From assembly GCA_047619315.1 (NCBI GenBank), contig JBLHKB010000002.1, positions 1-53,253 of the forward strand: DNA of 53,253 bases. Reading direction: 5' to 3'. Positions 20,256 through 40,068 of the stretch are shown here, in pieces. This DNA comes from Polyangiales bacterium (lineage in GTDB: Bacteria > Myxococcota_A > Polyangia > Polyangiales > Houyiibacteriaceae). The notes below the pieces were generated by a model. That model was not told where the DNA came from. It searched no databases and saw only the letters and a list, made by a program, of their open reading frames with translations. The position numbers were made by a program, and so were the translations under genes. Position 1 is the first letter of the stretch. Each line of letters opens with the position of its first letter.

Positions 20256-20349
20256 GGCCGACAGGTTAGCAGCTTGGGCGCAAAGGTGCGCTTCGCCGTG
20301 CGAAATTGCGTTCAGTCTCCCTCCTCTGAAGCTGCTATGCTGCTCATCT
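20256..20349. promoter_or_regulatory. Divergent promoter region with two extended -10 boxes
   Basis: Minus strand TGC-TAACCT (20263-20268) 7 nt before ATG 20255; plus strand TGC-TATGCT (20336-20341) 8 nt before ATG 20350. Confidence 0.6.
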
Positions 20350-22629
20350 ATGCGCGTACTCGTGCTCCATCCATCGATGACCGTGGCGCGGGATTTCATC
20401 GACTATCCCTACCTCGCCAACCTCGGCGGCGTTCAGCTCGCTGGCGCGCTGCGTTCAACGGACGTGGAGATGGTCTACATCGACGCCTTCGCTCTGCAGT
20501 CGTCGGCGGCGACATGGCAAGAAGACGGGCGCTTGCTCGTCGGTGCGCCAGTTCAGGACGTTCTTGCCCACGTAACGGGCAACTTCGACGCCGTGGTTCT
20601 CATCACGACACCCTTTCATCGCCCTGGGACCCGTGACGCGCTACTCGCGAAATTCGTCACGGAGCTCCGTGGGCGAACCCCGTACCTGCTCTTGGCCGAT
20701 GCATATCAGTCGGGGCAGCACTACGTCGAAGCCGACGTACTCTCGGCGTACCCAGAGGCCGACGCATGGCTCAAATACGAAGCCGAGGCTTCCATCGCGG
20801 AGGTCCTTCGAGAGCAGCCCCGAGGCATCATTCTTGGAAAGCGCGCGGACCTTTCCACGCTCCCCCTTCCCGCTTGGGACCTCATCTCGACGTCGGCGCT
20901 CTGGCAGTTCCACCGTCGCTTCGAAGAAGCCATCGCCCGACCGGCCTGGGCGTTTCCCATCGGCGAAAACGCGCTGCCCATGGTCACGAGCCGCGGTTGC
21001 CCTTTTCGATGCATTCACTGCTCGTCGAACCCAGACTTGAAAGCCGGAGAGGCCAAGACTCAGCGGCGCTTTGCCGAAGATGCCCTCCGTGCCCGCGTAG
21101 AGCAGGCGTCCCAGCTCGGTGCAAGGACGCTCCAGATCCTCGACGAGCTCATCAACGTCCGCCAGTCGCACTTCGACGCTTTCCTGGACGCCGTCGAAGC
21201 GTTGGACACGCCGCTTCGCTTCGAAGTACCCAACGGGTTTCGCGCGGACTACCTAACACCGGCGCACTTCGCGCGGATGCGTGGGCGATGCACCACCGTG
21301 AGCATCAGCGCCGAGAGCGGAAGCGCGCGCGTCGTGGCGGAGGTCGTCGACAAGCAGCTCGACCTCGGCGCCATCGAAGCCGCCGCCGAGAGCGCCCAGC
21401 GCGCCGGCATGCCGCTCTTGGTGCACTACATGATCGGGCTTCCCGGCGAGACGGCCTCCGAGGTCAACGAGACGCTCTCCTTCGCCGCGGACCTTTCGGA
21501 TCGCTTTGACGCCATACCCGCAGTCCAGTTCGCGACGCCGCTGCCCGGCACGGAACTGGCGCGACGGCTCCCCGTGCTCGAGAACGCGCCAAGCGATGGG
21601 GACTGGGGGCCTCGTTTTCAGATGGGCCCGTCCACGGGCGGACTCGACACGGAGACCCTCGCGACCTTCAAACGAGTCTTCGACCAGCGCATGGATGCCA
21701 GCGGCGGCCCGAAGAAGCTCATCATGAACGTCACCTATGTGTGCAACAACCACTGCACGTTCTGCGCGGTGGGAACGCGCACGCAGGTCGACGGACATCC
21801 GACGCGACAGCGCGAGATCCTGGACAAGTACCGACGCCACGGCGTTCACCTCGTCGACTTTGACGGCGGCGAGCCCACTTTGAACCCCGAGCTTGTGAGC
21901 CTCATTCGCTACGCACGACGCGTCGGCTACGAACGCGTCAACGTGACGACGAACGGTCGACTCCTCGCGTATGAGGACTTCGCCAAGAAGCTCGTTCAAA
22001 GCGGACTCACCAGTCTGCTCTTCAGCGTGCACGGGCCGGACCTCAAGAGCCACGCCCGCGAGGTTGGTGTCGCTGAGGCCTTCGACCAAACGGTCGCCGG
22101 GATCAAATACGCCGTGAAGCACGCGCCGCCGAACGTGGAGATCGGCATGAACGTGACGTTGACGAAGACCAATTATAAGAAGCTCGATGAGCTCGCCGCT
22201 TTCGGCTTTGGTCTTGGGCTTCCGTGGCTGAACATCCAGTTCCTAACGCCTTTTGGCCGCGCGACCACGGACGTTGCGCCGGACACCGAAGAGGCCGCGG
22301 CGATCACCGCGGCGGTCATCGACAAGTGGAAAGACCGCATGAAGTTCCAGGTGATCAACCTGCCTTGGTGCTTCTTGCCGGACCACGAGGAGTTTCTCGT
22401 GGGAGACAGCCTCAAGCTCGGGCGACACATGGTGTTCGTGAACAACGAGACCGTGAACCTCGCGGAGTACCTCGCCGAGCGAAGACACAAGAAGCCGGTG
22501 TGCGAATCTTGCGCATATGGCGTTTTCTGCGGCGGCTTCTACCAGCTCGAGGACGTGCCTGAACCGGAGTGGATCGTCTCGCCGGAATCCCTGACGAAGA
22601 AGATCCGGCCCGAACTCGACGTTCGATGA
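20350..22629 (+). CDS. Double radical SAM protein: B12-binding-type radical SAM fused to an HxsC-type radical SAM
   Basis: MRVLVLHP..YPYLANLG N-domain; TSRGCPFRCIHC, SAESGS, YMIGLPGET (class B-like); second core CNNHCTFC, DGGEPT, TTNGR, LPWC...CESCAYGVFCGG. Confidence 0.9.
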   Translation: MRVLVLHPSMTVARDFIDYPYLANLGGVQLAGALRSTDVEMVYIDAFALQSSAATWQEDGRLLVGAPVQDVLAHVTGNFDAVVLITTPFHRPGTRDALLAKFVTELRGRTPYLLLADAYQSGQHYVEADVLSAYPEADAWLKYEAEASIAEVLREQPRGIILGKRADLSTLPLPAWDLISTSALWQFHRRFEEAIARPAWAFPIGENALPMVTSRGCPFRCIHCSSNPDLKAGEAKTQRRFAEDALRARVEQASQLGARTLQILDELINVRQSHFDAFLDAVEALDTPLRFEVPNGFRADYLTPAHFARMRGRCTTVSISAESGSARVVAEVVDKQLDLGAIEAAAESAQRAGMPLLVHYMIGLPGETASEVNETLSFAADLSDRFDAIPAVQFATPLPGTELARRLPVLENAPSDGDWGPRFQMGPSTGGLDTETLATFKRVFDQRMDASGGPKKLIMNVTYVCNNHCTFCAVGTRTQVDGHPTRQREILDKYRRHGVHLVDFDGGEPTLNPELVSLIRYARRVGYERVNVTTNGRLLAYEDFAKKLVQSGLTSLLFSVHGPDLKSHAREVGVAEAFDQTVAGIKYAVKHAPPNVEIGMNVTLTKTNYKKLDELAAFGFGLGLPWLNIQFLTPFGRATTDVAPDTEEAAAITAAVIDKWKDRMKFQVINLPWCFLPDHEEFLVGDSLKLGRHMVFVNNETVNLAEYLAERRHKKPVCESCAYGVFCGGFYQLEDVPEPEWIVSPESLTKKIRPELDVR

Positions 22630-23555
22630 CCCGGCTTCTGGACGTCGTCATGCACTACGAGTGCAATCTGGCCTGCGACTACTGCACGATCACGCCTCAA
22701 ATGCGGACGCGTTCGCTCTCGGCTCGGCAGATCGCCGCCGCCATGCAGCGTGCGAGGCGCGACGGGATTACCGAGCTGAGCTTCACGGGCGGAGAGCCCA
22801 CCATTCGCGGAGACCTGCTGCCGCTCATCCGCGCAGCGAAAAAGCTCGGCTTCATGGACATCAAGGTCCAGAGCAACGGGCTCCTCTTCACGCCAGCGAA
22901 CGTTCAACGGCTCCGAGACGCCGGCGTGACTCGATTTCACGTGAGTGTGCACACGCATCTCAAGGAGCCCTACGAGCGGATGGTGCGTGGCGCCGCTTAT
23001 GACGCGATGGAAGCCGGACTTCGGGCTCTCACAGCCGCAAACGTGCGCCCGGTGGCAGACCTCATTATGAGCGACGAGACCGCCCCTCGGCTCGCCGGGG
23101 CCGTCAAATGGCTCGCCGAACGCGACATTCGGCGGGCACGGCTCTGGCTTATTTCGCTCACCGATGGGAATCGCGATCGCCTTCACTCACTTCTGCCCCT
23201 CGACGAGCTGATGCCGCACGTTTCACGTGCTTTTGAGGCTGCAGACGATCGCGGCTTGGACCTCCGAAGCCTTCATTTGCCGAAGTGCATCCTTGGGAAA
23301 TACGCCGACCGCAGCGAAGACCCGGCGGCGGGCGGCGTTCGCCTCATAACACCCGATGATGAGCGCGATCTGGCCGACGCCAAGCTCACTCCCGGCGCGT
23401 TTGTCCCGGCCTGTGAGGGGTGTCCAGACCGGCAGAGTTGCCGTGGGTTACGGGCGGATTACCTCGAAGTTCATGGGGACGCCGCCGTCGCTCATGCCCG
23501 TGGAAAAAACCCCGCTATCAATCCGACACGCCTACGTGTAGTAAGTGAATCGTGA
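22626..23555 (+). CDS. Radical SAM protein (HxsC-type)
   Basis: ATGA overlap; CNLACDYC, TGGEPT, QSNG, LPKC...CEGCPDRQSCRG. Confidence 0.92.
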   Translation: MTRLLDVVMHYECNLACDYCTITPQMRTRSLSARQIAAAMQRARRDGITELSFTGGEPTIRGDLLPLIRAAKKLGFMDIKVQSNGLLFTPANVQRLRDAGVTRFHVSVHTHLKEPYERMVRGAAYDAMEAGLRALTAANVRPVADLIMSDETAPRLAGAVKWLAERDIRRARLWLISLTDGNRDRLHSLLPLDELMPHVSRAFEAADDRGLDLRSLHLPKCILGKYADRSEDPAAGGVRLITPDDERDLADAKLTPGAFVPACEGCPDRQSCRGLRADYLEVHGDAAVAHARGKNPAINPTRLRVVSES

Positions 23556-26391: not shown

Positions 26392-27927
26392 GTGAATCAC
26401 TTCTGCGCCACCCTCCTCGGACTACTACTCGTCGTTGGCTGTGCGAAGGGCAGCGGCGACGCCGTCGTCCACGTCAATCTTCGAACGGACTATGCAGCTC
26501 TCGCGGAGTGGACCGAAGCGAGGATCGTGTTGGTCAAACCTGGCGGCGAGGAGGAGGAGTACATTCACACCGCGTCCGCGGCGGACTACGTCTCCGGCGC
26601 GCGCGTTCACTCCTTCGAAGGGCTCGGCCAAGGCGACTACGAGGTCCGTGGGGAGCTCGTGACGGCCAGCGGTCGCACCGTAGGTTCGCGTCGCCTGACG
26701 TTCACGTTGTTGGGGGAGACGTTTGCCACGGCGCTCATCACACGAAGCTGCGAGGGAATCGTATGCCCCATGGGCGACCCGGCGGCCACGGAATGCAGCG
26801 GCGGCCGCTGCGTCCTCCCGGAGTGCTCGGATACAAACCGGGATGCCTGCGACGTTGGCTGCGCTGGTGATACCGACTGCGTCAGCTCCGTCGCATGCGC
26901 GGCCGGACTCTGCACGTCTGAAGGTGCTTGCATCTTCGAGCCCATCGAAGGCATTTGCCAAGACGTCGAGTACTGCGACAGCGATCGCGGATGTCTGATG
27001 GCACCGATCGGCGACGCCGGCGTGATGGACTCCTCCGTGCCCGATTTCGATGGGGGTACTCCTGACGCGGGCCCCACGACATGCGACCCCGTGTGCGCTG
27101 GCTTCGACATCTGCGAAGACGGTGTGTGTGTCCCTTCCACGGGTTGCCTCACAGGCGGAGAATGCGCCGACGACTTAATCTGCCGAAACCGCCGCTGCGT
27201 GCCTCCGACGCAAGATGTTGACGGTGACGGTTCGCCAGCAAGCGAAGACTGCAACGAGCTTCGCCCTGAGGCCTATCCGGGCGCTCCCGAGCTCTGCAAC
27301 AACTTGGACGAGGACTGCGACGAGATCGTCGATGAAGGGAACCCCGGCGTCCTCTGCACAGAAGAAGGCGGCGAATGCATGAACGGAACCTGCGGCTGTC
27401 CCCCAGGCATGCTGGACGTCGACGGCGTCCCGGACACCGGCTGCGAATGCGTCATTACGCCCGATGAGGGAGCCACCGGCGCGGTCTGCGCCACTCCATT
27501 CGGCCTAGGCAGCCTCGCGGACAGCGGCCAGATGATGACCGTCAGCGGCAACGCGCTCCCGATGGGACGTGAGGTTTGGTACTCAGTGATCGGTTCGGAC
27601 AGCACCGATACCGCCTGCGACACCTACGACTTTAGAGCGCGTTTCACGGACAACCCGGGCGACGCGTTCCGCCTTGATGTCCGGCGCAGCGCTTGCGACG
27701 CTATGTCTTGCGACATGTCCGAGGCCGGGTTCACCGAGTACAGCTTCTCCACGAACTTCCGCGACGCCGCTGGAGTCGGCGAATGCCCCTGTGCTGTGGC
27801 TCCAGGCCAGCCTGGACGAAACATCTGCTCGAACAACACGGCGACCTACTACGTTCGCGTCTTCCGCCGCCCGGGTGCGCCGGTGACGTGTGCGCCCTAC
27901 ACGCTGCAGCTCAGCAACGGCATCTGA
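26392..27927 (+). CDS. Cys-rich lipoprotein with MopE-like putative metal-binding motif
   Basis: Lipobox LVVGC; DVDGDG..EDCNE..PEAYPGAPELCNNLDEDCDEIVDEG; many EGF-like Cys clusters; TATACT 6 nt before GTG. Confidence 0.85.
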   Translation: MNHFCATLLGLLLVVGCAKGSGDAVVHVNLRTDYAALAEWTEARIVLVKPGGEEEEYIHTASAADYVSGARVHSFEGLGQGDYEVRGELVTASGRTVGSRRLTFTLLGETFATALITRSCEGIVCPMGDPAATECSGGRCVLPECSDTNRDACDVGCAGDTDCVSSVACAAGLCTSEGACIFEPIEGICQDVEYCDSDRGCLMAPIGDAGVMDSSVPDFDGGTPDAGPTTCDPVCAGFDICEDGVCVPSTGCLTGGECADDLICRNRRCVPPTQDVDGDGSPASEDCNELRPEAYPGAPELCNNLDEDCDEIVDEGNPGVLCTEEGGECMNGTCGCPPGMLDVDGVPDTGCECVITPDEGATGAVCATPFGLGSLADSGQMMTVSGNALPMGREVWYSVIGSDSTDTACDTYDFRARFTDNPGDAFRLDVRRSACDAMSCDMSEAGFTEYSFSTNFRDAAGVGECPCAVAPGQPGRNICSNNTATYYVRVFRRPGAPVTCAPYTLQLSNGI

Positions 27928-27931
27928 GCGA

Positions 27932-27985
27932 CGTCATCGAGAGCAACCGCATCAAGAGCAACGTCATCGAGAGCGGCGGCATCGA
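27932..27985 (+). repeat. Degenerate 15-bp tandem repeat (about 3.5 copies)
   Basis: cgtcatcgagagcaa/ccgcatcaagagcaa/cgtcatcgagagcgg/cggcatcga. Confidence 0.7.
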
Positions 27986-28582
27986 GTGAGCGAAGAAGAC
28001 ACCTGTCCGCCTCAATGCTTGTCGTGCCTGGGGGGAGCGAAGGATGCGCACGAGGTTCACCATGGCTATCCAGTCGCTGCCGCGGCGCGATGGCTCGTTG
28101 ATCTTCATGCAGATTCCGAAGCGCCCCACGATTTCGTGACGAGCGATGGTTCCTTCGAGCGGACCCTTGCGCTCCTGGAACAAGGCAAGTCGAACAACCA
28201 GATCATCGAAGTACGCACGTGGCTGACACGCGCCACGTTTCGCCATCTTCGCGAGCTGCCTCGCCTCCTCAAAGAGGGTCAGGTGTGCGCGTGGCATCTG
28301 AATGTCCTTCCTTGGGGCAACGACGCTGTTCCGCGCCTGGCCATGGCATGGCCACACGCGCTGAGAGCGGCCAAAGAGGCGGAAGCCGAAGGCATCACCG
28401 TGACCACCCACGGTGCTCCGCGGTGTGTCCTTGGACCCTTCTCTCGCTTCGCCGGCGATGAAACGTCCAAGACCTTTGGCGCGAAATGCGAAAGCTGTGT
28501 GGCGCGAGCTGAGTGCGTTGGCGTCGACGAGGGCTACCTCGCTCGCTTCGGAGACGAAGACCTTCGAGCCCTCAAGAGCTAG
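27986..28582 (+). CDS. Miniature HxsC-type radical SAM-like protein
   Basis: CPPQCLSC (CxxxCxxC); VDLHAD...HDFVTSDGSFERTL; APRC...CESCVARAECVG..YLARFG; no GGEP or TNG segment. Start uncertain. Confidence 0.7.
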   Translation: MSEEDTCPPQCLSCLGGAKDAHEVHHGYPVAAAARWLVDLHADSEAPHDFVTSDGSFERTLALLEQGKSNNQIIEVRTWLTRATFRHLRELPRLLKEGQVCAWHLNVLPWGNDAVPRLAMAWPHALRAAKEAEAEGITVTTHGAPRCVLGPFSRFAGDETSKTFGAKCESCVARAECVGVDEGYLARFGDEDLRALKS

Positions 28583-29649
28583 CCCTCGGCGGCAAGAACT
28601 GGCTGCATCTCATCCCAGCCGTAGCGGGTGAGGTAGTTTCGCCACACGCCTTCGCACACGGAGTCGTACTTGCAGCTTGAGCACTCCGCGCGCTTCTCCC
28701 GCATGGCGTCATCGAGGTCCGAGCGACGAATCCCTGAGACGCTCGCGCCTCCTGGCCCTTGCACGTCTTCGCCTTCGAGGGCGATGTCATGGCTCGTGTC
28801 GCTTGGACCTTCGTAGTGCTTATAGCTCTCGACGAAGCCGCGGTTAAAGTCAGGGAGCGCCGTCGTCGTGCATGGCGGGATGTCGACGAGGAAGGCCATG
28901 GGGCGTTCTTCTTCGCTGGCTTCGAGGAACGCGCGGACGGTCTCGGCGATTTCGCTGTAGCGGGGGAAGATGCGCTCGAAGTGGGTGTTCGCGCGTCCGT
29001 TCGCTTGCATCACATTGAGGATCACCTGCTGCACACCCAGGCCGCGCAAGAACGCGTAGATCTCGCCGACGTGCGGGAGGTTTCTCTTCGTGATGACGGT
29101 GCTGGTGTGAAGCTCGATGCCGTAGCGTTGGAGTGCGGCGATCTGACGGATGCCGGCGACGGTTTGGTCGTAAGCACCAGGGGTGCGAACGAGGGAGTCG
29201 TGGAGCTTCTCCGTGTGCCCATGAATGCTGATGTAGAAGCGGTTGAGTCCAGCCTTGGCGAGGCCTTTGGCGAAGCGCTCATACCCCAGCGCGCGACCGT
29301 TCGTCATGATGCTGATCTTCGGCACGCCGGCGGCTTTCGCCATCTTTACCCAGTGCGGTAAGCGACGGTTCGTCGTCGGCTCGCCGGAGGTGAAACAGAT
29401 CTCTTCGCACCCCGCATGTTCACGGAGGATCCACTCGACGAGGTCGTCGTCGGTGCGCGCGTTCGTGACCTTCCGGCCATCGCGATCTTCTTCCATGCAG
29501 AAGATGCAGTTGTTGTTGCAGACGGTGCCCGTCAGAACGTGAACGCGTTCGCTCTTCGTTCGAACACGTTCGCGGAAACCTCGCTCGCCGTCTTCACGGC
29601 CCTCGTCAAGAACCGGTAGGCGACGCTGAGGCGAGCCGGCGTCTACCAC
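28579..29649 (-). CDS. His-Xaa-Ser system radical SAM protein, HxsC-like
   Basis: GTG overlaps the precursor end; CNNNCIFC, TSGEPT, MTNGR, SIHG..LHD, IPPC...CSSCKYDSVCEG..YLTRYG. Confidence 0.88.
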   Translation of the reverse strand: MVDAGSPQRRLPVLDEGREDGERGFRERVRTKSERVHVLTGTVCNNNCIFCMEEDRDGRKVTNARTDDDLVEWILREHAGCEEICFTSGEPTTNRRLPHWVKMAKAAGVPKISIMTNGRALGYERFAKGLAKAGLNRFYISIHGHTEKLHDSLVRTPGAYDQTVAGIRQIAALQRYGIELHTSTVITKRNLPHVGEIYAFLRGLGVQQVILNVMQANGRANTHFERIFPRYSEIAETVRAFLEASEEERPMAFLVDIPPCTTTALPDFNRGFVESYKHYEGPSDTSHDIALEGEDVQGPGGASVSGIRRSDLDDAMREKRAECSSCKYDSVCEGVWRNYLTRYGWDEMQPVLAAEG

Positions 29650-29927
29650 GAGCCGTGGGAGCCGTGACTTCCATGAGAGCCATGACTTCCGTGGGAGCCA
29701 TGACTTCCGTGGGAGCCGTGACTTCCATGGGAGCCGTGACTTCCGTGGGAGCCGTGACTTCCGTGGGAGCAATGTTGAGCGCCGCGCTGAGCGCCGCCCA
29801 TGATGCCACCGCCCTCGTCGGCGTTCTTACGCGCTCGTTCCGAGAGCTCGCGCTGCTGGACATTGAGTCCACCCGCGGCGTCTTTGTCGAAGGAGGGGAG
29901 CTCGTCCCAGTCGTCGGCTTCGGCCAT
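29643..29927 (-). CDS. hxsA: His-Xaa-Ser repeat precursor peptide (HxsA-type), core HCS-(HGS)13-W
   Basis: 51-aa leader ending AQ, then 14 HxS triads and a terminal Trp; directly upstream of the HxsC-like gene, with hxsB/hxsD in the window. Confidence 0.9.
   Translation of the reverse strand: MAEADDWDELPSFDKDAAGGLNVQQRELSERARKNADEGGGIMGGAQRGAQHCSHGSHGSHGSHGSHGSHGSHGSHGSHGSHGSHGSHGSHGSW
29649..29774. repeat. 9/18-bp coding tandem repeat encoding the HGS triads
   Basis: Minus-strand unit tcccacggaagtcacggc with synonymous CAT/CAC variation. Confidence 0.92.
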
Positions 29928-29933
29928 GGAGGC

Positions 29934-29942
29934 AGTATAGCA
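29934..29942 (-). promoter_or_regulatory. Extended -10 promoter (TGCTATACT) of hxsA, probably leaderless
   Basis: TG-C-TATACT followed by 6 nt and the ATG; no SD. Confidence 0.65.
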
Positions 29943-30034
29943 AAAAGCGTGGGGAGCAGCATCCTTTGACGAGAGAGTCTCGTTTTCAGGGATTTCCGGT
30001 AGCGATCGCCCTACTCTGGCCGATCGCAGTCCAC

Positions 30035-30472
30035 TTAGCCGGCGTCGCCGGGGTTCGGAGCACTGCCGGTTTCAGCTCGCATCCGCGCGAGAGCGAAGGC
30101 GCCGCGGATCGCTCCGAAGAAGGCAGCGCCGAAGATGAGCGTGAAGACGATGCCGCTGGTCGGGGTCTCACCCGCCTCGACGGCCAGGACCATTCCCAAG
30201 ACGCGTTCCAGTCCATAGAAGATGAGGAGGAGCACCGCCGCCACGCGCGAGTGCTTGTACACACCAAAGCCGAGGGCTGCGAAGATCGTCACATCGATGA
30301 GAGACCAAAAATCGAAGCCCATCGCCTGAACAAGCCCGACCCCTGCGAGGCTGAGCCCGACCGCGATGCCCGTCATCCCAGCAATGAACCACGCGAGCTG
30401 CGCCGCCTGCTTGCAGGCTGCTTTCGCGTTCTCCGGTAAGCTGACGTCAGGCCAAAGGAAGTTGTTCGACAT
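30035..30472 (-). CDS. Small multi-pass membrane protein
   Basis: MSNNFLWP start; four hydrophobic helices. Confidence 0.75.
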   Translation of the reverse strand: MSNNFLWPDVSLPENAKAACKQAAQLAWFIAGMTGIAVGLSLAGVGLVQAMGFDFWSLIDVTIFAALGFGVYKHSRVAAVLLLIFYGLERVLGMVLAVEAGETPTSGIVFTLIFGAAFFGAIRGAFALARMRAETGSAPNPGDAG

Positions 30473-30558
30473 ACGAGAGAGGACCACACTCGATCGAGCG
30501 GGTCCAGGCTCGCACGCGTGTGCCGAGGAGAAGCGCGAGCGCAATCCCGGTAGAGACT

Positions 30559-32037
30559 TCACTCCGCCGGGCGCACCCAGCGGTCGCGGTGTGCGTTGCA
30601 GCCGTTTTCTACGCACACGTTCATCGGGGGTGGCAAGCCGTCTGTTTGGATAGCGGCGAGTTCGATGGGGGCAAGGCCCACCCGAAGCGCCGCAAAGACG
30701 ACGCCGGTCTGGTCCATGACACTGACGCGAATCACACCGGAAAGCACGGCACTCTCTCCCTCTGCAGCCACGGGCACGTTCCAGACCTCTTCACCATTAC
30801 CTGTGAATCGCTGCAGACCGGGGGCTATACGACCACCTACCCAGTCACCACCATCGAGCCACCGGGAAAAAACAGGATTGTATTGGCCTTCCCACGCGAT
30901 GGTGCGGGGCTGCAAGTCGTAGGGTGGGTCGAGGGCGAACAGTGCCCCCGCCGCTGCGTCGAAGAAAATGACGGCGCCCGTGGGGGACAAGTTTCCGTTG
31001 GCGATTCCCTCGAGTCGAGTTTCGTTCCCACCCGCGAGCACGACAAGGTCGGAGTCTTCACCGTCCGTGACGTGATAAATGGATGTCGCCGGCGCCTCGA
31101 GCTCGCCAATTAGCGCAAGAAGCTTGTCGCGTTCGATGGCGATGGGTTGAGACGTTTGAATCTCGCGGGTGTCGGGATTGACGCGATACACTCGCTGCCC
31201 ACCTGAAAGCACCAGCGAGCCGTCCGTTTCAACTCGAAGATAGGAAAAACTGGAGGCAAAAGGAATGCTTGGTTCGATTTCCTCGTTCGTCAGGGTCCAC
31301 ATGAGCCGCTCGCCCTGGCAGGTGGCATAGAGCTTGTTGCCGCCCGTTGCGTAGACCATGCCGCCGGGTCCTACAGCGAGCGCTGTGTGGTATTCAAGAC
31401 CGCGGATAGGGGCGCCGCCGGTGGCATTCGCGGCTGGGGAGAAGGGTGCTCTGGGGTCCATGACCCTCAAACCGCCCACACGCGGATGTTGGTCCTCCGA
31501 GTAGATGGCGGCGACAACTCGGCCATCCGGCAGCGGAAGGAGCGGACCGAGACGCGCAGAGATCCCGGGGTCGTTCTCGTCGGCGCCGCCGGCTCGAAAC
31601 CAGCGCCGCATGAGGCCATCGCGAGAGAGCTGCGTCACGTGCGCGGCCCGCGGGCCGCGCACCCAAATCGTCCCATCGGGACTGACCACGGGCTCGGACA
31701 CACCGGAGTAGAAGGCAGCGACTGGACCTGAGTAGCGTGGGTCGTTGGCGGGCCGGTAGCGCCAGAGAAGGCGCGGCGTGGCGTCGCCTGGAAGACCGCG
31801 CGGCATCGGCTCCACGGGGACCCAGTCTTCGCACGGCTCCGTGCTTTGGACGGTGATCACCGGTTCGTGACGCCACTCCGCCGGCGGGCCTGATGAGTCC
31901 TGAACATCCGGCGGGCCGACATCCGTGACGTCCACATCTTCAGTTCCGACGTCCACGGATGAGTCGGCCTCGCTATCGTCGCCGCAGCCAAGGGCGAACA
32001 CGATAAGAAGAGCAGAGCAGTGGATTAGCGTCCGCAT
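30559..32037 (-). CDS. Lipoprotein, beta-propeller-like (paralogue A)
   Basis: MRTLIHCSALLIVFALGC lipobox; VSPDGTIWV and AVGPGGMVYA blade-like motifs. Confidence 0.8.
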   Translation of the reverse strand: MRTLIHCSALLIVFALGCGDDSEADSSVDVGTEDVDVTDVGPPDVQDSSGPPAEWRHEPVITVQSTEPCEDWVPVEPMPRGLPGDATPRLLWRYRPANDPRYSGPVAAFYSGVSEPVVSPDGTIWVRGPRAAHVTQLSRDGLMRRWFRAGGADENDPGISARLGPLLPLPDGRVVAAIYSEDQHPRVGGLRVMDPRAPFSPAANATGGAPIRGLEYHTALAVGPGGMVYATGGNKLYATCQGERLMWTLTNEEIEPSIPFASSFSYLRVETDGSLVLSGGQRVYRVNPDTREIQTSQPIAIERDKLLALIGELEAPATSIYHVTDGEDSDLVVLAGGNETRLEGIANGNLSPTGAVIFFDAAAGALFALDPPYDLQPRTIAWEGQYNPVFSRWLDGGDWVGGRIAPGLQRFTGNGEEVWNVPVAAEGESAVLSGVIRVSVMDQTGVVFAALRVGLAPIELAAIQTDGLPPPMNVCVENGCNAHRDRWVRPAE

Positions 32038-32134
32038 GTCAAACCGAAGCGTAGCAGGCATAACTACCTTCCGCGGCTGACCGAGAAACACGGGCTGCGT
32101 TAGCCGGTACTCGGCGGGTTTAGTCGGCAGCAGT

Positions 32135-33631
32135 CTACTCCGCCGGCCGAACCCACCGGTCCCGGTGCGCGTTGCATCCTTCTTGAACGCACACGCTCAT
32201 GGGTGGCGGCAAGCCGTCCGTCTGGAACGCCGCGAGCTCGATAGAGGCGATGCCAACGACGACAGAAGAGAAGACGACGCCGGTCTCATCCATCGTCATC
32301 ATTGGAGTTACACCACCCGTCCCCACGTCCTCGCCATCCATAGAGATAGGCGCGTTCCAGACCTCTTCACCGGCCGTATTGAACCGGGTGATCCCGTTCC
32401 CGAGGCGCACCCAGTCGCCGCTCTCAAACCACCACGAAATCTCGTTATCGAACGGCCCATCGCCGGGGACTGCACGAGGCTCCCCTGTGTAAGGCGGGTC
32501 AAGTACCAGCGGCTGGCCGCTCCAATAGTGGACGGAACCAGTCGGTGAGATACTCCCGGAGCCGGATAGGGCACCAGCAAGTTGAACTTGCGCACCCCTC
32601 GTCACGACGACCATATCGCTCTCGCGGTCGTCGGACACGTACATCAGTGAACTCGTCAGCGTCGTTCCGACTAGTGAGACAACCTCATTTCGCTCCAAGG
32701 CGACTGGTTGAGAGGCCTCCACTTGATGAGAGCTCGGGTCTACGTAGTAGAGTCTCTGCATTCCACCGGAGAGAACCACGGTTCCATCCGCTTCGACCCG
32801 AAAGTAGGTAAACCGGCCCTCGCCCACGCCCGGCTCGATGAGCTCGTTGGTCAGCGTCCACATGAGCCGCTCTCCGCGACAGGTCGCGTAGAGCTTGTTG
32901 CCCCCCGTCGCGTACACCATGCCCCCAGGGCCCACCGCTAGCTTTGTGTTGGAGTCGAGGCCGGACAGACGCGCGCCGCTCACTGCGGGCGTAGCCGGGG
33001 AAAAGCTACCACTCGGGTCCATGACCGTTAGAACTCCGGGAAAGCTCTCGTCCACCCATGCGACCGAGGCAACAACGCGGCCGTCCGGCAGGGGGAGTAG
33101 AGGGCCCAGACTGTACAGAATCTTCGGATCGTTCTCATCGGCGCCGCCGGCGAGAAACCACCTGCGCATGAGGCCATCGCGGGAGAGCTGCGTCACGTGG
33201 GCCGCGCGAGGTCCGTGTACCCAAATCGTGCCGTCGGGGCTCACGACCGGCTCCGAGACATTGGAAAGGAAAATTGCGTCGGGCCCGGAGTAGCGTGGGT
33301 CGTTGGCGGGCCGGTAGCGCCAGAGAAGGCGCGGCGTGGCGTCGTCGGGAAGGCCGCGCGGCATCGGCTCCACGGGGACCCAGTCTTCGCAAGGCTCGGC
33401 GCTTTGCACCGTGATCACGGGCTCGTGGCGCCACGGCGCCGGCGGTCCGGAGGAGTCTCGCGCGTCGGGGCCGCCGGTGTCTTGAACATCGACCTCTTGC
33501 GCGTCTGCCTCTTGCGCATCGACGTCTTCGCTGCCGGCGTCCTCGGACGCGTCCGGCACGGCGTCGTCGCCGCAGCCGACGACGGATGCGAGCAAGAGTA
33601 ACAGCACCAGGCCGCGGTCTATTCCGTGCAT
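32135..33631 (-). CDS. Lipoprotein, beta-propeller-like (paralogue B)
   Basis: Lipobox SVVGC; shares long identical blocks with paralogue A. Confidence 0.8.
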   Translation of the reverse strand: MHGIDRGLVLLLLLASVVGCGDDAVPDASEDAGSEDVDAQEADAQEVDVQDTGGPDARDSSGPPAPWRHEPVITVQSAEPCEDWVPVEPMPRGLPDDATPRLLWRYRPANDPRYSGPDAIFLSNVSEPVVSPDGTIWVHGPRAAHVTQLSRDGLMRRWFLAGGADENDPKILYSLGPLLPLPDGRVVASVAWVDESFPGVLTVMDPSGSFSPATPAVSGARLSGLDSNTKLAVGPGGMVYATGGNKLYATCRGERLMWTLTNELIEPGVGEGRFTYFRVEADGTVVLSGGMQRLYYVDPSSHQVEASQPVALERNEVVSLVGTTLTSSLMYVSDDRESDMVVVTRGAQVQLAGALSGSGSISPTGSVHYWSGQPLVLDPPYTGEPRAVPGDGPFDNEISWWFESGDWVRLGNGITRFNTAGEEVWNAPISMDGEDVGTGGVTPMMTMDETGVVFSSVVVGIASIELAAFQTDGLPPPMSVCVQEGCNAHRDRWVRPAE

Positions 33632-36600
33632 ATTACCTCCTCATCTGGAGGTATGTACGCGCCGGGGTTATTCGTGCGGTCGCTTTCATCGACGCTCGTG
33701 GAAGCGAGGGGTCCGCACGTGCCGTTGCTCTGTGGCTCGGGGTGACGCGGAGGCATAACGCACCGGACGCTCGAATCGTAGGGCGTGACAACGAAGTCGC
33801 TCGTTCCTGTTGGCGCGTCTCGGCGGGTGAGGTACTGGCACATGGCCCAGGCCATCTGTGCGTTGTCGTTGTAGTCGCAGTAGAGCGTCGGGTTGTGGCC
33901 CTCGGCAAAGGGAGACTGGGTGATGTGGGAAGGCCGCGCTGCGCCCGCAAAATCGAGGCTCGCCGAATAACAAAACGTTCCCCCAGTGCAGGTTAGGTCC
34001 GTCGGACGACCTGGCGCGTAGCCCGTCGTATTGCAGGCGGTAGGCACACCCAACGGCGCGTCGTCACACCGCCGATGAAGGTTCCGGTAGGCCCGTAGTC
34101 CCGCACGCCCGGCGCTGCGGTCGTCATAGACCAGCGCCACACCGGACTCGCTCCGCTCTCCGGTCTCTAGCGCCTTGCTGTCCGGGTCGGTCCAGTTGGT
34201 GAAGTTCGGCAGCTCCGCCCGCGTCTCGAGTAGGACGTTGTCGTTGTCTCGGTACATGACGAAGAACTCCGGCGCCGTGGTGCCAGGCGGCGCGGGCGCG
34301 ACGGCGAGCTCGATATCGGTGCCTACTCCTTGGGTCGATGGCACCGTGGTCTCATAGGTCCACGTGGTGTTCACTCCGGCACCCGCGGGCACGCTGTAGA
34401 TTCGGATCCCCGTGACGGAGCTATGCCTGGCGGCGAGATAGACTTTGTCGCCGTAGGCCACTGCGCCCACGTCGCCGTAGCTGTAGTGCGTGCCGCTGCT
34501 CAAGCTCGTCTGCACCTGCGCGGACCCGGTCCACGTGTTTGAGCCCGAAGGGAGGAAGCGCTGCCGAAGCACGGAGTTTGAGTCCTGATAGATCATGAGC
34601 ACGCCGCCGTGCGGATTGCTCGCGCTTTGGGGCACTTCCACCAGTGTGGCGTCGACCTGCGTGTTGTTGGTGGTGTAGCCGGGGAATACGCCGCCCAAGT
34701 GCAGCGTGGCGTTGACGCTTCCTCCTCCGCCTGCCTGTACCCTGTACGTCTGCCAGCGAAGCTGCGTTCCGACGCGGTACACGAGCGCCATGCCGGCTGC
34801 CGTGCCGCCGCCGGACGCCGGAATCCGGGTGGACGCTACACTCACGGCGTCGGCGCTAAGCCCCGTCGGCACAGCGTCTCCCAAGTCAATGCAGGAGCCG
34901 TAGGACCAAGAGCTGCCCGACAGCGTGGGTACAATGTTGCAGACGCCGTCGCGATTCCACTTCAGAAAAACAGTTCCAGGCAGACCGAGTTCATGATGGT
35001 AGTCGACGTAGGCGAAGACGAGAAAGTCATCGATGATCGCTGCGTCCATGTGAGAGCCGTAGATGGACGTGTTCAAGTCCCAGTCGTCATGCGACTTGCC
35101 GGCTGACTCTCGCGCGTTCCGGCCGTTTTCTAAGTCACGGTATCTGCCCCAAATCGTCGGATTCATGTCGATGACATTGTTCCCGTTCCAATCGACGTCT
35201 TCGTTAAACTCGCCCCCGGGTACATTTACCTGTGGTGGTGGGTCGCCTTCTGGAACGACTGGCCACACATCTACAGTTGGCGAACCTTGACGGAGCGCGC
35301 CGACGACGTCGGGATGGGTTCCCCCGAAAGGAGTGTTTTCGTTGGCACTCCTGGAGCTAACGGCCCCTTCGATGGCGCCGCTTGAGAATGCGAGGCCGTT
35401 GGACACAACACCCTGGAAACGGTAGTTGATACGCGACGGGTAGCTGGGCCGATTATTCGCTCCGTTGTCCTCTTCCGCAGAGGTGCCGTAGGGCCCTCCG
35501 TGGTTCAAGCCGAGCATGTGACCGATTTCGTGAACATGGGAGGTGGTGTTTCTTGCGTAGTAACAGTTCCCGCCGGCCTTCGCTCCCAGCGTGTCGAGGC
35601 CCCACCGGAACAACCAGGCGCGCGCCGGACTCAAATCCGAGGCGCAATCGGCACGGTAGTTGTTCGTCAGGTAGCAGGTGTTGCCGCCGCCCCAGTCTCC
35701 CCAGGACACGTCCGTTGCGTTCGGGTTCGCCACGCCCACATCAAAGTGAAGGGTGATGCCGTCGGAGCCGTCTGGGTTCAGACTGCCGGGCAGCGCCACA
35801 TTGTCATAGATCTCTTGGGCGCGTACGAAGAAGTCCTCGTTGCTGGCGGGGTTGGTGTTGCCCAGCAGTCGCGGGTCTCTCGCGTTGTTCCCCAGTGCAA
35901 AACCATCGCACACCGTAGCCGTAGAGCCGACCCGGTCCGTCGTGTGCATCTCGATGAACACATCCTTATGCAGCGGGTCCGCACCGAAGCGAGCCATCTG
36001 CGTCGTGATGCCGCCATAGCCGTACACCTCGACGTCGTCGCGCAAACCGTCATGGTCCGTGTCTCGCAGGTGAGCGGCGCATGACTGGGTCCGGCAGACG
36101 CCGGCGATGCATTCCTCTGTGCTGTCGCACTGTGAGCATGAGCCGCCGTTGACCTGACACTCCGCAAATCGTCCGTCACACGTCTGACCCGTCGCCAGCA
36201 TGTCGTTGACACCATCGCAGGTGCCGAGTGACGCCTCCAGCGCCGTGCCCAATCCATCGCGATCCGCGTCATTGTTGAACCAGTCGTTTTTGAGAAGGCG
36301 AACAGCGCCCACGTTGGAGGCGCCCCAGCCGCCGTAGATGATCTCGCGATTTCCCGGCGGTATGTACTGGTCTCCCGTGTCGGCTTCCGCGAGGCCCGTG
36401 GCGATATCACTGACGGTACTCAGGAAGTGAATGTCCTGGTCGTTGGCCACCATGATCATGTGCCGAGCGGAGTTGCCTGGCATGTGTGCTGTTGACCAAT
36501 GCTGGCGGCCAGCAACGATGGTCCTCTCCACGCGTGCGCCACCCACCGTCACAATACCCGTGCTTCCGAAGAAGCCGGCCATAGGCCCGCTGCTGGCCAG

Positions 36601-37011
36601 CGTTGGGTCGTACGCATGAATCTGTGTGTCGGCTGGCGTTTGGGTTCGCCAAGCACGTGCGATGAGGAACGCTGCCGTTGGCGAGTTGGTATTGTTCGTC
36701 CACTGAAAACACGAAGGGCCCCACTCAAACTGGCCGTTGTGCAGGCAACCGTCGGCGCCTTCCAGTGTGTCCTGGTTGGCCCAATCGTAGAGCGTGAGCA
36801 CGGTGTCGGGCCACTGGCCTCCCATGTTGTAGTCGGTCCGAAACTCGAAGGTCGTGTTGGCGGGGATGACGACGTAACCCATCCAAAGTTGGTGGCCGAT
36901 GGAGTACGTGCTTTCCACCTGGGCGCTGCCAGCGTTCGGCGCACAAATCACTGCCGCGAAGATAGCGAGTCGCAACGCGAGCCCGAGTCCGTTTGGTCGA
37001 AGGCGGTTCAT
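33619..37011 (-). CDS. Large secreted zinc metalloprotease-like protein
   Basis: Signal peptide; HEIGHMLGLNH (HExxHxxGxxH); Ca-binding DADRDG and DTDHDG repeats; beta-rich C-terminus. Confidence 0.75.
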   Translation of the reverse strand: MNRLRPNGLGLALRLAIFAAVICAPNAGSAQVESTYSIGHQLWMGYVVIPANTTFEFRTDYNMGGQWPDTVLTLYDWANQDTLEGADGCLHNGQFEWGPSCFQWTNNTNSPTAAFLIARAWRTQTPADTQIHAYDPTLASSGPMAGFFGSTGIVTVGGARVERTIVAGRQHWSTAHMPGNSARHMIMVANDQDIHFLSTVSDIATGLAEADTGDQYIPPGNREIIYGGWGASNVGAVRLLKNDWFNNDADRDGLGTALEASLGTCDGVNDMLATGQTCDGRFAECQVNGGSCSQCDSTEECIAGVCRTQSCAAHLRDTDHDGLRDDVEVYGYGGITTQMARFGADPLHKDVFIEMHTTDRVGSTATVCDGFALGNNARDPRLLGNTNPASNEDFFVRAQEIYDNVALPGSLNPDGSDGITLHFDVGVANPNATDVSWGDWGGGNTCYLTNNYRADCASDLSPARAWLFRWGLDTLGAKAGGNCYYARNTTSHVHEIGHMLGLNHGGPYGTSAEEDNGANNRPSYPSRINYRFQGVVSNGLAFSSGAIEGAVSSRSANENTPFGGTHPDVVGALRQGSPTVDVWPVVPEGDPPPQVNVPGGEFNEDVDWNGNNVIDMNPTIWGRYRDLENGRNARESAGKSHDDWDLNTSIYGSHMDAAIIDDFLVFAYVDYHHELGLPGTVFLKWNRDGVCNIVPTLSGSSWSYGSCIDLGDAVPTGLSADAVSVASTRIPASGGGTAAGMALVYRVGTQLRWQTYRVQAGGGGSVNATLHLGGVFPGYTTNNTQVDATLVEVPQSASNPHGGVLMIYQDSNSVLRQRFLPSGSNTWTGSAQVQTSLSSGTHYSYGDVGAVAYGDKVYLAARHSSVTGIRIYSVPAGAGVNTTWTYETTVPSTQGVGTDIELAVAPAPPGTTAPEFFVMYRDNDNVLLETRAELPNFTNWTDPDSKALETGERSESGVALVYDDRSAGRAGLRAYRNLHRRCDDAPLGVPTACNTTGYAPGRPTDLTCTGGTFCYSASLDFAGAARPSHITQSPFAEGHNPTLYCDYNDNAQMAWAMCQYLTRRDAPTGTSDFVVTPYDSSVRCVMPPRHPEPQSNGTCGPLASTSVDESDRTNNPGAYIPPDEEVICTE

Positions 37012-37613
37012 CGCTCACCTCGCCGAGGTGGCCACACCAGGTCAGCGGGTCGCCCCGTGGCCTGTCGTTCGCTCAGTTCGGCGGCGTGCTGAATTGCATC
37101 TTGCCGCATTTCTTCCAGCTGGTCTGGCGTCGGCAAGTGCGCGGGTGGGGCAAACATCCTCTGCACGTCTGCTTCGGACGCACCCGACTCGCGAAGTGCA
37201 CGCATCACTTCTTGCTGCGACTCCTGAGCGACTGCTTCACGCGCTTCGTGACTGCGAAACTCGGCGGCAGGCTCCTCCGGCTCAAGGCGAGCAAGCATCT
37301 CCTCCTGGTCTTCCGCCAAGTCGTTCATCATCGCTTCACGCATGGCGCGATAGCGTTCTTCGATGTCGCGGCCGGTGTTGATGTCGGCTTCCCGTCCGAG
37401 TAGGCCGTCGGCTCGCGCTCTTTCGTTGGTGAGCTCGTTGGCCAGCTCCGCCATGCCTCGAACTCGCGCCTCGGGAGTCGCCTGCGCGCGTACTTCTTCG
37501 TAACGCGAGCTCTCCGCGTGGGAGAGGTTGGCGCTACTAACGCCTATCCCCCCCCCATTTTCAGCACACCCAACGAGCACCAGGACTCCAAACCACAAAC
37601 TAGCGTTCCGCAT
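37008..37613 (-). CDS. Lipoprotein, hypothetical
   Basis: MRNASLWFGVLVLVGC; ATGA overlap with the protease gene. Confidence 0.75.
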   Translation of the reverse strand: MRNASLWFGVLVLVGCAENGGGIGVSSANLSHAESSRYEEVRAQATPEARVRGMAELANELTNERARADGLLGREADINTGRDIEERYRAMREAMMNDLAEDQEEMLARLEPEEPAAEFRSHEAREAVAQESQQEVMRALRESGASEADVQRMFAPPAHLPTPDQLEEMRQDAIQHAAELSERQATGRPADLVWPPRRGER

Positions 37614-37697
37614 CTTTTCCCCTTCGCACAAGCAGACCTCATGCTCCGGCTTTTGTCGCACCTTGAACGGGTTGGGTGAGGTGCTTTTCTGAAATGC

Positions 37698-39275
37698 CTA
37701 CTCGGGCGAGTCCTGGATGAAATGCTCGCGGGGACGATGTGTCGTCCAGCGCTCAAGGACGTCGATGGTCTCTTGGTCGCCGGAGCCGAGGAGCTCGAAG
37801 AGGTAGTCCTGGATTCCCTTGTGGACTTGGCAGAGCGTGGACTCGCGCATGCGGCCGAAGAGCGAGCCCTGCATCTTGTGCGTGTGAACAGGCGGGATGC
37901 CGCAGTAGGGCTGGTAGGGGCAGTGTACACAGTCTGGCTGCGTGGACAGCTGCCCAGCGATGACCACGGCACGCACGGTCTCGTGGCCGACGATGTCGCG
38001 GTAGGTGCTGGTGAAGACATCTCCGAGCATGAATGTGTCGTCGCCCATCTCGTGGAGCATTCGGCCTTCGTCGCAGGTGAACATCTTACCGTCGTAGTTG
38101 TAGGCGAGCTGTCCAATGCCGGCGCCGCCGGGCTGGCGGATGTCGAGGAAGTTCGGGTCCTCGCCGCGGAGGATCTTCGTCAGGAAGATGGCGGCGTAGC
38201 GCTCGAGGATCTCGGCGCCACCTTTGTTTAGCTCGATCATGTAGTCGACGGAGTTGCGGTAGTACTCGAGGTACTCCTCGCGCGGGTACTCGATGCGGTC
38301 GCCGGTTCGTTCGGCGAAGCCGAAGGGATCAAGAGGCCGCAAGAAGAGCGCGCGACAGCCGAGGGCGAGGTAGGTGTCGACGAGCTCTTTGTGTTTGCTG
38401 AGGAGCGGCCGCGTCGTCGTGACGAGGGCTTCGACGTGATAGAGCGTCTCGTCGAGTTTCATCTCGGCGTAGCGCTTGTTGATCTTCTCGATCCACTGGG
38501 ACGCCAGAGCGTGACCGCTCGCGCCGTACACCTTCGGGAGCTTGCGGTGCTTGTCGTGGATCTCCGGCGGGCCGTCGATGGAGGTGCAGATCTGCACGCG
38601 GTTTTCGACGAGGTAGTCGAGCTTCTCGTCGTCCATCAGCGACAGGTTGCTCACCATGGTGAACTCAAGCTCCTTCTTCGCCGTCTCGTTCTTCGCCCGC
38701 GCGTACGTGATGACGTGCTTGACGATGTCGAAGGCCACGAGGGGTTCGCCGCCCTGAAACTCGATGGTGACGGACGGGTTCGTCGTCTGGAAGATCATGT
38801 CGATGCATTTTTCAGCGATCTCCGGCGTCATGTCCGTGTGCACAGCGTCCATGTTGGCGCGGGATGCGTGGCAGTAAACGCAGGTGGTGTTGCAGCGCAA
38901 CGTCACGACGAGGATGTGCAGATTCGGCCCGGCGCCGACGAAGTTACGGCGCGCTTGAAGCATCCGCGCTGCTGCAGGAACGTCGGTGTGAAGCCGAAGG
39001 AAGTTCCGCTCCTTCAGGCGCGCGAAGAGATCCGCGCTCTCGCCCTTCTCCGTCGCTTCGCCCGCGGCGAAGGTCTTGAACTCGGCATCGCTGAGGACAA
39101 GCCAGCGGCCTTCGAGGTTGGTGATGACGACGCGCTCGTTGTGGAGCCGGCGAAAACGGAAGTACGCCGGAGCGCCTTCGCTCGTCGCATCGGCGAAGCT
39201 CACGCCGGCGCGAAAGAGCTCGCCCTCTCGTCCAGTGTTGCCGCGCTCACGCGGCGTAACGGCTTGCTCAGTCAT
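37698..39275 (-). CDS. hxsB: His-Xaa-Ser system radical SAM maturase HxsB
   Basis: N-terminal PAYFRF..VVITNLEG; LHILVVTLRCNTTCVYCHASR; TIEFQGGEP; TSIDGP..HD; GAGIGQLAYNYDG..TCDEGRM; CVHCPYQPYCG SPASM. Confidence 0.92.
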   Translation of the reverse strand: MTEQAVTPRERGNTGREGELFRAGVSFADATSEGAPAYFRFRRLHNERVVITNLEGRWLVLSDAEFKTFAAGEATEKGESADLFARLKERNFLRLHTDVPAAARMLQARRNFVGAGPNLHILVVTLRCNTTCVYCHASRANMDAVHTDMTPEIAEKCIDMIFQTTNPSVTIEFQGGEPLVAFDIVKHVITYARAKNETAKKELEFTMVSNLSLMDDEKLDYLVENRVQICTSIDGPPEIHDKHRKLPKVYGASGHALASQWIEKINKRYAEMKLDETLYHVEALVTTTRPLLSKHKELVDTYLALGCRALFLRPLDPFGFAERTGDRIEYPREEYLEYYRNSVDYMIELNKGGAEILERYAAIFLTKILRGEDPNFLDIRQPGGAGIGQLAYNYDGKMFTCDEGRMLHEMGDDTFMLGDVFTSTYRDIVGHETVRAVVIAGQLSTQPDCVHCPYQPYCGIPPVHTHKMQGSLFGRMRESTLCQVHKGIQDYLFELLGSGDQETIDVLERWTTHRPREHFIQDSPE

Positions 39276-39583
39276 GAGGGCTCCTCTTCTTTCTCGGTGC
39301 TGTTGTCGGCGGCGTTGTCTTCGGCGGCGTTCTTATCAGCGGCGGCGGTGACGGCTTCCGCTTTTGCGGCGGCAATGCCGTGGCGCACGGCAAGGCCAAG
39401 GGCGTAGTTTCCGAGTTCGCCTTCAAGGCGCTTCTCTCGCTCGGGCGTCGAAGCGCTGACGTCGATGCGCCAGTGGGTGTCTTCGTCGGCGCGCTCGAAG
39501 GTGCCGAAGCGCTCGTACACTTGGACGGCGGCGTCGACTTGCTCGCCGGGATAGACCGCCTTCGGAAAACGAAGGGTTCTCAC
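39272..39583 (-). CDS. HxsD-like protein
   Basis: F.KAVY....VDAAVQVY...GELGNYAL pattern; translationally coupled between hxsD and hxsB. Confidence 0.7.
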   Translation of the reverse strand: MRTLRFPKAVYPGEQVDAAVQVYERFGTFERADEDTHWRIDVSASTPEREKRLEGELGNYALGLAVRHGIAAAKAEAVTAAADKNAAEDNAADNSTEKEEEPS

Positions 39584-40020: not shown

Positions 40021-40068
40021 GGGGCGCAAGATACACCCTTAGGGACCTCGCGGCATTTCCGATTTGGT

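Follow-up and report, generated by a model that had tools for sequence, protein, structure and literature searches.

The window analysed here is a 53,253-nt stretch of a contig from a Polyangiales bacterium, and coordinates throughout are positions in this window. On its reverse strand lie hxsA4 (29643–29927), which encodes a short precursor with a His-Gly-Ser (HGS) array, and hxsC4 (28579–29649), which encodes a radical S-adenosylmethionine (SAM) maturase. Relatives of other Hxs maturation genes are found further upstream. The gene hxsA4 is very probably a genuine, translated member of the HxsA4 family, and its ribosomally made product the substrate on which a variant of the His-Xaa-Ser radical SAM maturation systems ("type 4") acts.

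The hxsA4 precursor gene and its overlap with hxsC4

The product of hxsA4 comprises 94 residues and is followed by a TAG stop codon (29643–29645). Codons 1–51 (29775–29927) specify a leader that ends in Gly-Ala-Gln and carries 11 Asp/Glu versus 6 Lys/Arg. The core (29646–29774) starts with His-Cys-Ser, continues with 13 copies of His-Gly-Ser and ends in a Trp immediately before the stop, without a follower domain. Its 43 residues contain 14 His, one Cys and one Trp, with no Lys or Arg in the repeats, and the precursor has neither a signal peptide nor a peptidoglycan-binding domain. At the DNA level, Tandem Repeats Finder reports 6.6 copies of an 18-bp unit, each encoding two HGS triads, from 29653 to 29770 (92% matches, score 201). 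Specifically, CAC-GGA-AGT alternates with CAC-GGC-TCC, so that Ser is encoded by AGT and TCC by turns, while the His codons vary synonymously (CAC 9, CAT 5). An earlier note made from the DNA letters had described an acidic 51-residue leader ending in AQ, an HCS-(HGS)13-W core without a follower and an 18-bp unit with synonymous variation, and translation and repeat analysis agree with every element of that description. The array lies far beyond chance, given that over 100 other genomes show this architecture too.

The precursor gene runs directly into hxsC4, a gene for a 356-residue protein starting at GTG 29649. The protein scores 571.2 bits with NCBIfam NF038332 "radical SAM protein HxsC4" (cut-off 500) and 78.6 bits with Pfam Radical_SAM. 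A longer open reading frame (ORF) from a TTG at 29772 (28579–29772) runs through the repeat in a different frame, in which Leu-Pro-Arg-Lys-Ser-Arg is encoded over and over, as the earlier note had anticipated when it wrote that an overlapping frame extends the radical SAM ORF. The HxsC4 model aligns from residue 64 of this longer ORF onward and not before. Between the repeat and the CxxxCxxC motif, GTG 29649 is the sole start codon in frame, and it overlaps the hxsA4 stop by 7 nt, an arrangement that likely reflects translational coupling of the two genes. From residue 1 onward, the protein is 93% identical to its counterpart in L112, a Polyangiales metagenome-assembled genome (MAG) that is the nearest relative found. 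An alignment of 46 HxsC4 sequences contains an invariant CNNNCxFC motif and a C-terminal CxxCx5C motif.

With NCBIfam NF038313 "His-Xaa-Ser repeat protein HxsA4", the precursor scores 97.7 bits against a cut-off of 55, with residues 9–94 aligned to model positions 1–93 of 93. Both the HxsA4 and the HxsC4 models, which define curated annotation families, are thus passed over cut-off and at full length, consistent with the proposal of the earlier note that a leader-plus-core precursor stands beside a radical SAM enzyme of the His-Xaa-Ser system. A six-frame search of the source genome returns one HxsA4 (96.8 bits). Canonical HxsA (TIGR03979, cut-off 121.65 bits) is not among the seven families that the peptide matches at E ≤ 1, and it has no match in the source genome, which is 84% complete. 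The leader reads L-P-S-F-D-K ... L ... R-E-L-S-E-R-A, in agreement with the consensus of 50 HxsA4 leaders, L-P-x-F-x-R/K-x-A-x-x-x-L ... R-E-I-S-x-R-A. In an alignment of 129 peptides, all 59 occupied rows carry the Pro of this motif, and 101 of 103 carry the Leu. The window's peptide therefore has the family score, an uninterrupted C-terminal array ending in Trp, the leader motif and the pairing with an HxsC4-type gene; judged by sequence, it is an ordinary member of a catalogued family and not a new kind of precursor. The leader motif, the HCS start, the HGS array and the terminal Trp are common to it and 143 other intact arrays in related loci, from which nothing essential distinguishes it; in the window, hxsB and hxsD are displaced by a 7.7-kb block.

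Comparison with L112 indicates purifying selection on the hxsA4 reading frame. In the leader, 15 of the 16 nucleotide differences fall at third codon positions, giving 14 synonymous codon changes versus 1 non-synonymous change, and the similarity falls off upstream of the common ATG. The protein-coding nature of the precursor suggested earlier is borne out by this pattern. The array itself was compared with contigs from public sequencing runs (20 runs listed, none of them RNA), from which the start, strand and level of expression cannot be read; the absence of RNA among the listed runs is not evidence either way. A contig from run X1, possibly the source sample, spans 29300–30200 with zero differences. 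A 727-nt contig from run X2, an independent metagenome, covers 29300–29967 with one substitution and no gaps. The independent X2 contig thus reproduces all 14 triads; the earlier note had itself raised the concern that the repeat number might be an artefact.

Assemblies are prone to errors in HGS repeats. The contigs from X3 and X4 break off inside the array, arrays are broken or contain N runs in the metagenome assemblies L092, L102, L107, L121 and L162, and the array of L112 has exactly four 18-bp units fewer than that of the window, which could be a collapse in the L112 assembly. An artefact of assembly, or a microsatellite that codes for nothing, is nevertheless a hardly credible explanation of the repeat number or of hxsA4 itself, given the two runs that cover the whole array with 0 gaps, the strong third-position bias of the leader, the full-length match to the family model and the presence of the same architecture in complete genomes of cultured Nannocystis. 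One called homologue, P0023, has an out-of-frame stretch within its array that looks like two compensating frameshifts.

A promoter scan of 28400–30300 found no sigma-70-type promoter, for which the consensus may not suit Myxococcota, and no Rfam family reaches its gathering score anywhere in the window.

Array length and distribution of HxsA4

A six-frame search of 401 sampled Myxococcota genomes, the source genome included, found HxsA4 over cut-off in 125. Triads were counted in the loci returned by this search, in 80 twenty-kb regions around matches and in 80 loci found by HxsC4 in named genomes. After 11 re-fetched duplicates were dropped, 161 arrays of at least four perfect triads were obtained, of which 17 were set aside for being cut by a contig end or N run or for an atypical tail. 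The remaining 144 intact arrays represent 129 distinct peptides, the window's own included. The count requires perfect H-x-S runs, the two retrieval routes overlap, and repeats can collapse in MAGs, which many of the genomes are.

Array length ranges from 5 to 49 triads per distinct peptide, with a median of 16, slightly above the 14 of the window. At least 10 triads are present in 123 of the 129 peptides and at least 14 in 90, so 14 triads are nothing special in the HxsA4 family. The claim of an exceptional 14-triad precursor falls with these numbers; the earlier note had itself named the finding of 10 or more triads as common among HxsA homologues as the result that would speak against it. 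The count stands out only against canonical HxsA, for which Li et al. (Nat Commun 2026; PMC13128918) describe five repeats in a protein of about 214 residues.

The first triad is HCS in 127 of the 144 intact arrays, and 2073 of the 2107 later Xaa positions hold Gly. As their tail, 118 arrays have W, 25 have HGQW and one has HGRW. Very long arrays are found in L045, L066 and L069 (49 triads each), L020 (37) and L109 (32), with tails of HGQW or W.

Core length differs between lineages, and the suggestion of a length-variable core holds between genomes. The L112 leader differs from that of the window by one residue, and its array has 6 triads versus 14, which may be a real shortening or an assembly collapse. 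Two related MAGs, L115 and L118, have two tandem precursor genes each, with 13 and 18 triads.

The HxsA4 branch is present in about a third of the sampled Myxococcota genomes and in other phyla. The 80 HxsC4 relatives that were kept are all from Myxococcota or from genomes labelled Deltaproteobacteria or delta proteobacterium; they include Polyangiales, Sandaracinaceae, Nannocystaceae and Kofleriaceae, with Nannocystis exedens DSM 71, N. pusilla, N. punicea and Polyangium fumosum DSM 14668 as cultured carriers.

Among public called proteins, 62 match HxsA4 at E ≤ 1e-5, and some look-alikes are annotated as collagen-like. Two of the 62, from Omnitrophota and Elusimicrobiales MAGs, are named "His-Xaa-Ser repeat protein HxsA4" by NCBI. 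Of the 12 matches that were inspected, nine combine a related leader motif with a hydrophobic segment after it. Leaders of the subgroup to which the window's peptide belongs lack this segment, in contrast to those of the Omnitrophota and Elusimicrobiota members. The exact 94-residue sequence is absent from about 15 billion called proteins, as is that of a Nannocystis homologue for which the start was guessed. Genes that were never called, a different choice of start or records outside the collection may explain this absence. It lends weak support to the idea that gene callers miss hxsA4, against which stands the fact that NCBI has a dedicated hidden Markov model and names some HxsA4 proteins.

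Neighbouring Hxs genes and the intervening block

Three further Hxs genes lie 8–10 kb upstream of hxsA4 on the same strand. The gene hxsB (37698–39275) encodes a radical SAM/SPASM-type maturase with 547.4 bits to TIGR03978 (cut-off 370), the one HxsB match in the source genome. It is preceded by a gene for a small HxsD-like protein (39272–39583; NF038315, 60.5 bits versus cut-off 41) and by hxsD (39580–40029), which at 47.8 bits is just under the cut-off of 50 of TIGR03976. This run is headed by a gene (40069–41850, reverse strand) for an HxsC-like radical SAM protein fused to a C-terminus resembling a SAM-dependent methyltransferase (NF038332, 115 bits, below cut-off; NF045667 methyltransferase, 36 bits). 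Full-length homologues of this fusion gene, 59–64% identical, occupy the same place in L116, L117 and L119.

In related loci these genes adjoin hxsA4. Of 80 loci of 20 kb, 36 have hxsA4 and, upstream of it on one strand, HxsB; in 33 of those 36 the mid-point of HxsB is 0.95–1.2 kb away, meaning that the two genes abut. HxsD homologues are found in 33 of the 80, some 2.3 kb upstream of hxsA4. The genes for D, D-like, B, A4 and C4 are contiguous in L114, L117, L119, L120 and L122. Thus, the order D-(D-like)-B-A4-C4 of the relatives becomes D, D-like, B, 7.7-kb block, A4, C4 in the window.

The block (30035–37661, reverse strand) contains five genes, encoding a small membrane protein, two paralogous proteins of about 500 residues (30559–32091 and 32135–33631), an 1130-residue protein with a HExxHxxGxxH zinc-protease-like motif and a 217-residue protein. 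The four block proteins that were scanned belong to no family in NCBIfam or Pfam, and tblastn (E ≤ 1e-6) against about 160 related loci returns nothing with any of the five. The GC content of the block is similar to that of its flanks. The block is apparently lineage-specific and not part of the Hxs system. Because relatives keep hxsB adjoining hxsA4 and the block proteins have no homologues there, the locus reads as a single Hxs system split by the block into hxsD/hxsD-like/hxsB and hxsA4/hxsC4. Insertions may recur at the junction of hxsB and hxsA4. In the second-nearest relative (L113:104-2828), about 2.7 kb separates the end of hxsB from hxsA4, with no similarity to the block proteins of the window.

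On the other side of hxsC4 and convergent with it lies a 230-residue ORF (27890–28582, forward strand) that resembles the C-terminal half of HxsC alone (TIGR03977, 38.5 bits, model positions 127–288). Homologues stand beside hxsC4 in L112 (70% identity), L113, L115, L116 and L119, and the ORF may encode a truncated or non-catalytic HxsC paralogue. It carries a CxxxCxxC motif near its N-terminus.

Three more radical SAM genes, recognised by NCBIfam and Pfam matches, are located between 18465 and 23555. They encode a 644-residue HxsC-like protein with a long C-terminal extension (18465–20399, reverse strand), an 809-residue fusion of B12-type and HxsC-like radical SAM domains (20200–22629, forward strand) and a 328-residue MoaA-like protein (22569–23555, forward strand). 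Full-length homologues of these genes lie at most 10 kb from hxsA4 in, for example, L040, L049, L051 and L115. Counted together with HxsB, HxsC4 and the fusion at 40069–41850, seven radical SAM domains fall within 23 kb. The source genome as a whole has nine HxsC-like (TIGR03977) matches, none over cut-off. The region left of 18.4 kb is unrelated to the Hxs locus; a CAAX-type protease gene at 6868–7554 lies 22 kb away with no sign of linkage.

Proposed maturation and possible roles of HxsA4

To judge from the account of Li et al., the antiphage system of E. coli is the sole characterised His-Xaa-Ser (HXS) system. There, HxsD-HxsB-HxsC-HxsA is reported to block phage DNA entry, with every HxS repeat required for the antiphage action (PMC13128918). 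HxsA is described as N-terminally cleaved, as carrying a +8 Da change in its last repeat and as acting in the periplasm, and HxsC as binding HxsD; the proposed model rests on basic residues and cell-wall anchoring (PMC13128918). In that survey, 99.7% of 10,369 HxsA are from Pseudomonadota and 99.6% of the systems are arranged as HxsD-HxsB-HxsC-HxsA (PMC13128918).

The locus of the window resembles the canonical systems of E. coli and Klebsiella (TIGR03976–03979) in having an equivalog-level HxsB, a putative HxsD just under its cut-off, an HxsD-like protein, an HxsC-related radical SAM enzyme and a tandem His-Xaa-Ser substrate. It differs from them, as they are described, in the substrate, a peptide of 94 residues that has no domain besides its 14 uniform HGS units, and in gene order, D-(D-like)-B-A4-C4 instead of D-B-C-A. 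It also differs in the score of HxsC4 with canonical HxsC (TIGR03977, 97.3 bits versus a cut-off of 267.9), in the several extra HxsC-like radical SAM genes and in the host, which belongs to Myxococcota and not to Pseudomonadota.

Precursors of ribosomally synthesized and post-translationally modified peptides (RiPPs) with repeated short cores are known from other radical SAM/SPASM systems, among them the CXXX-repeat peptides and the Gly-rich repeat GrrA/OscA, and each repeat is modified iteratively. The window shares with these systems a leader followed by a tandem core of a short motif, beside radical SAM maturases. In contrast to them, the repeat here is His-Gly-Ser, and no RiPP recognition element (RRE)-type domain, peptidase or exporter was identified among the scanned neighbours. 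A further repeated-core example is provided by the poly-cyclopropylglycine TVG peptides (PMC9062424).

We infer leader-guided modification, leader removal and action outside the cytoplasm. The leader would serve as a handle for the maturases, namely HxsC4, probably paired with HxsD in the manner of E. coli HxsC and HxsD, and HxsB. These enzymes would place the same radical modification on His or Ser of successive HGS triads, and the leader would then be cut off near the A-Q/H-C-S junction. The mature His-rich, length-variable peptide would be a multivalent binder of a polyanion or a metal.

Several points weigh against this picture. HxsC4 does not reach the cut-off of canonical HxsC, so transfer of function from E. 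coli HxsC would be by distant homology. In the window, hxsB and hxsD are 8–10 kb away from hxsA4, which makes co-regulation only conjectural. The linkage is not obligatory, because 28 of the 80 HxsC4 loci have no array of at least four perfect triads within 6 kb, and because one Myxococcota family has a solitary hxsA4 (16 triads) that lacks any radical SAM neighbour within 10 kb. This arrangement is found in L041 and about 18 similar loci (L042, L043, L046, L054–L058, L061, L070, L071, L075–L077); HxsB is located elsewhere in the genome in the five of five members of the family that were checked. A role of HxsD as an RRE- or PqqD-like leader binder is unsupported by a fold search with its AlphaFold model (predicted local distance difference test score 85.5). 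No chain in the PDB was matched at E ≤ 0.001, the best being 0.017 with template modelling (TM) scores of at most 0.48 for weak Rpb11/Pcc1/YbjN-like matches, and neither this search nor the scan of the neighbours identified an RRE-type domain. No peptidase or exporter was recognised among the scanned neighbour genes. A complex prediction of HxsC4, HxsD and HxsA4 residues 1–66, each with its own alignment, scored 0.02 against a mark of 0.32 and is counted neither way on binding.

One alternative is that HxsA4 is the equivalent of the E. coli HXS antiphage effector, being matured, periplasmic and able to block phage DNA entry by binding DNA. The maturase set is homologous (HxsB over cut-off, a putative HxsD, an HxsD-like protein and an HxsC-like enzyme), the canonical system is reported to be antiphage with each repeat needed (PMC13128918), and repeat length shifts fast between close relatives (6 versus 14 triads), as an arms race might give. 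We nevertheless regard it as an unlikely account. The features on which the E. coli model, as described, relies are missing from HxsA4, namely the peptidoglycan-binding domain, the signal peptide and the Lys/Arg residues in the repeats. PADLOC 2023 has no matching model for the locus and reports only generic viperin-like radical SAM similarity. In the family with solitary hxsA4, 29 of 29 genomes have a match (E ≤ 0.001), and the gene stands among housekeeping genes, those for XerC, a RodZ-like protein, an L,D-transpeptidase and a Ser/Thr kinase in L041, the sole locus of this group that is annotated; this looks more like a core trait than a patchy defence island. As the HxsA proteins of the survey are almost all from Pseudomonadota according to its main text, the HxsA4 branch is taken to lie outside its coverage (PMC13128918). 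The lack of the anchor, the signal peptide and the basic residues speaks against HxsA4 as a simple copy of the E. coli model, as does its distribution in one family, which resembles that of a core gene.

It is similarly doubtful that HxsA4 is a metal-binding peptide, that is a His-rich molecule resembling a metallochaperone or metallophore, rigidified or crosslinked by radical SAM enzymes, in which the number of triads would set the capacity. The His content of the core, with its single Cys and Trp, would suit this role. A gene for a protein with the "putative metal-binding motif" PF11617 (26311–27927) is syntenic with hxsC4 in close relatives (81% identity in L112; also L113 and L115–L117), but PF11617 proteins are common Cys-rich secreted proteins in Myxococcota. 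A gene for a 771-residue di-haem protein resembling MauG and cytochrome c peroxidase (46257–48572, reverse strand) has TIGR03981, the "His-Xaa-Ser system-associated MauG-like protein", as its best NCBIfam match, but the score is far below cut-off (44 versus 340 bits). The scanned neighbours include no metal transporter, TonB receptor or regulator.

The idea that HxsA4 in its unmodified form functions as a short triple helix of the collagen type, (Gly-Ser-His)n, beside a coincidental radical SAM neighbour draws on the formal Gly-X-Y nature of HGS, which accounts for the similarity to Collagen (PF01391), the sole Pfam match of the peptide, and on the collagen-like annotation of some look-alikes, but it is highly improbable, as the score of 26.1 bits is under the gathering score of 27.2, hxsA4 has an overlap with hxsC4 and comes after hxsB in 36 of 80 loci, and the conserved leader and invariant terminal Trp are features of precursor peptides.

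Beyond the assignment of hxsA4 as a maturation substrate, a broader and only tentative interpretation is that the HxsA4 loci form a large sister branch of the HXS defence system, in which several HxsC-like enzymes might iterate one modification along a pure (His-Gly-Ser)n core whose 5–49 units change quickly in 18-bp steps. Its product would then represent a ribosomal repeat peptide of a new class, and its role, in defence, metal handling or the envelope, would be distinct from that of the peptidoglycan-anchored E. coli effector. The experimental work of 2026, as presented, treats HXS systems as an almost purely proteobacterial four-gene defence (PMC13128918). The HxsA4 branch, with its very different substrate and extra radical SAM enzymes, widens this context; the family is catalogued but functionally unstudied, and our literature search found no experimental paper on HxsA4 or HxsC4. 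Cultured carriers, namely Nannocystis and, for HxsC4 relatives, Polyangium, make the function testable. The arrays of five cultured Nannocystis genomes have 10 triads in every case.

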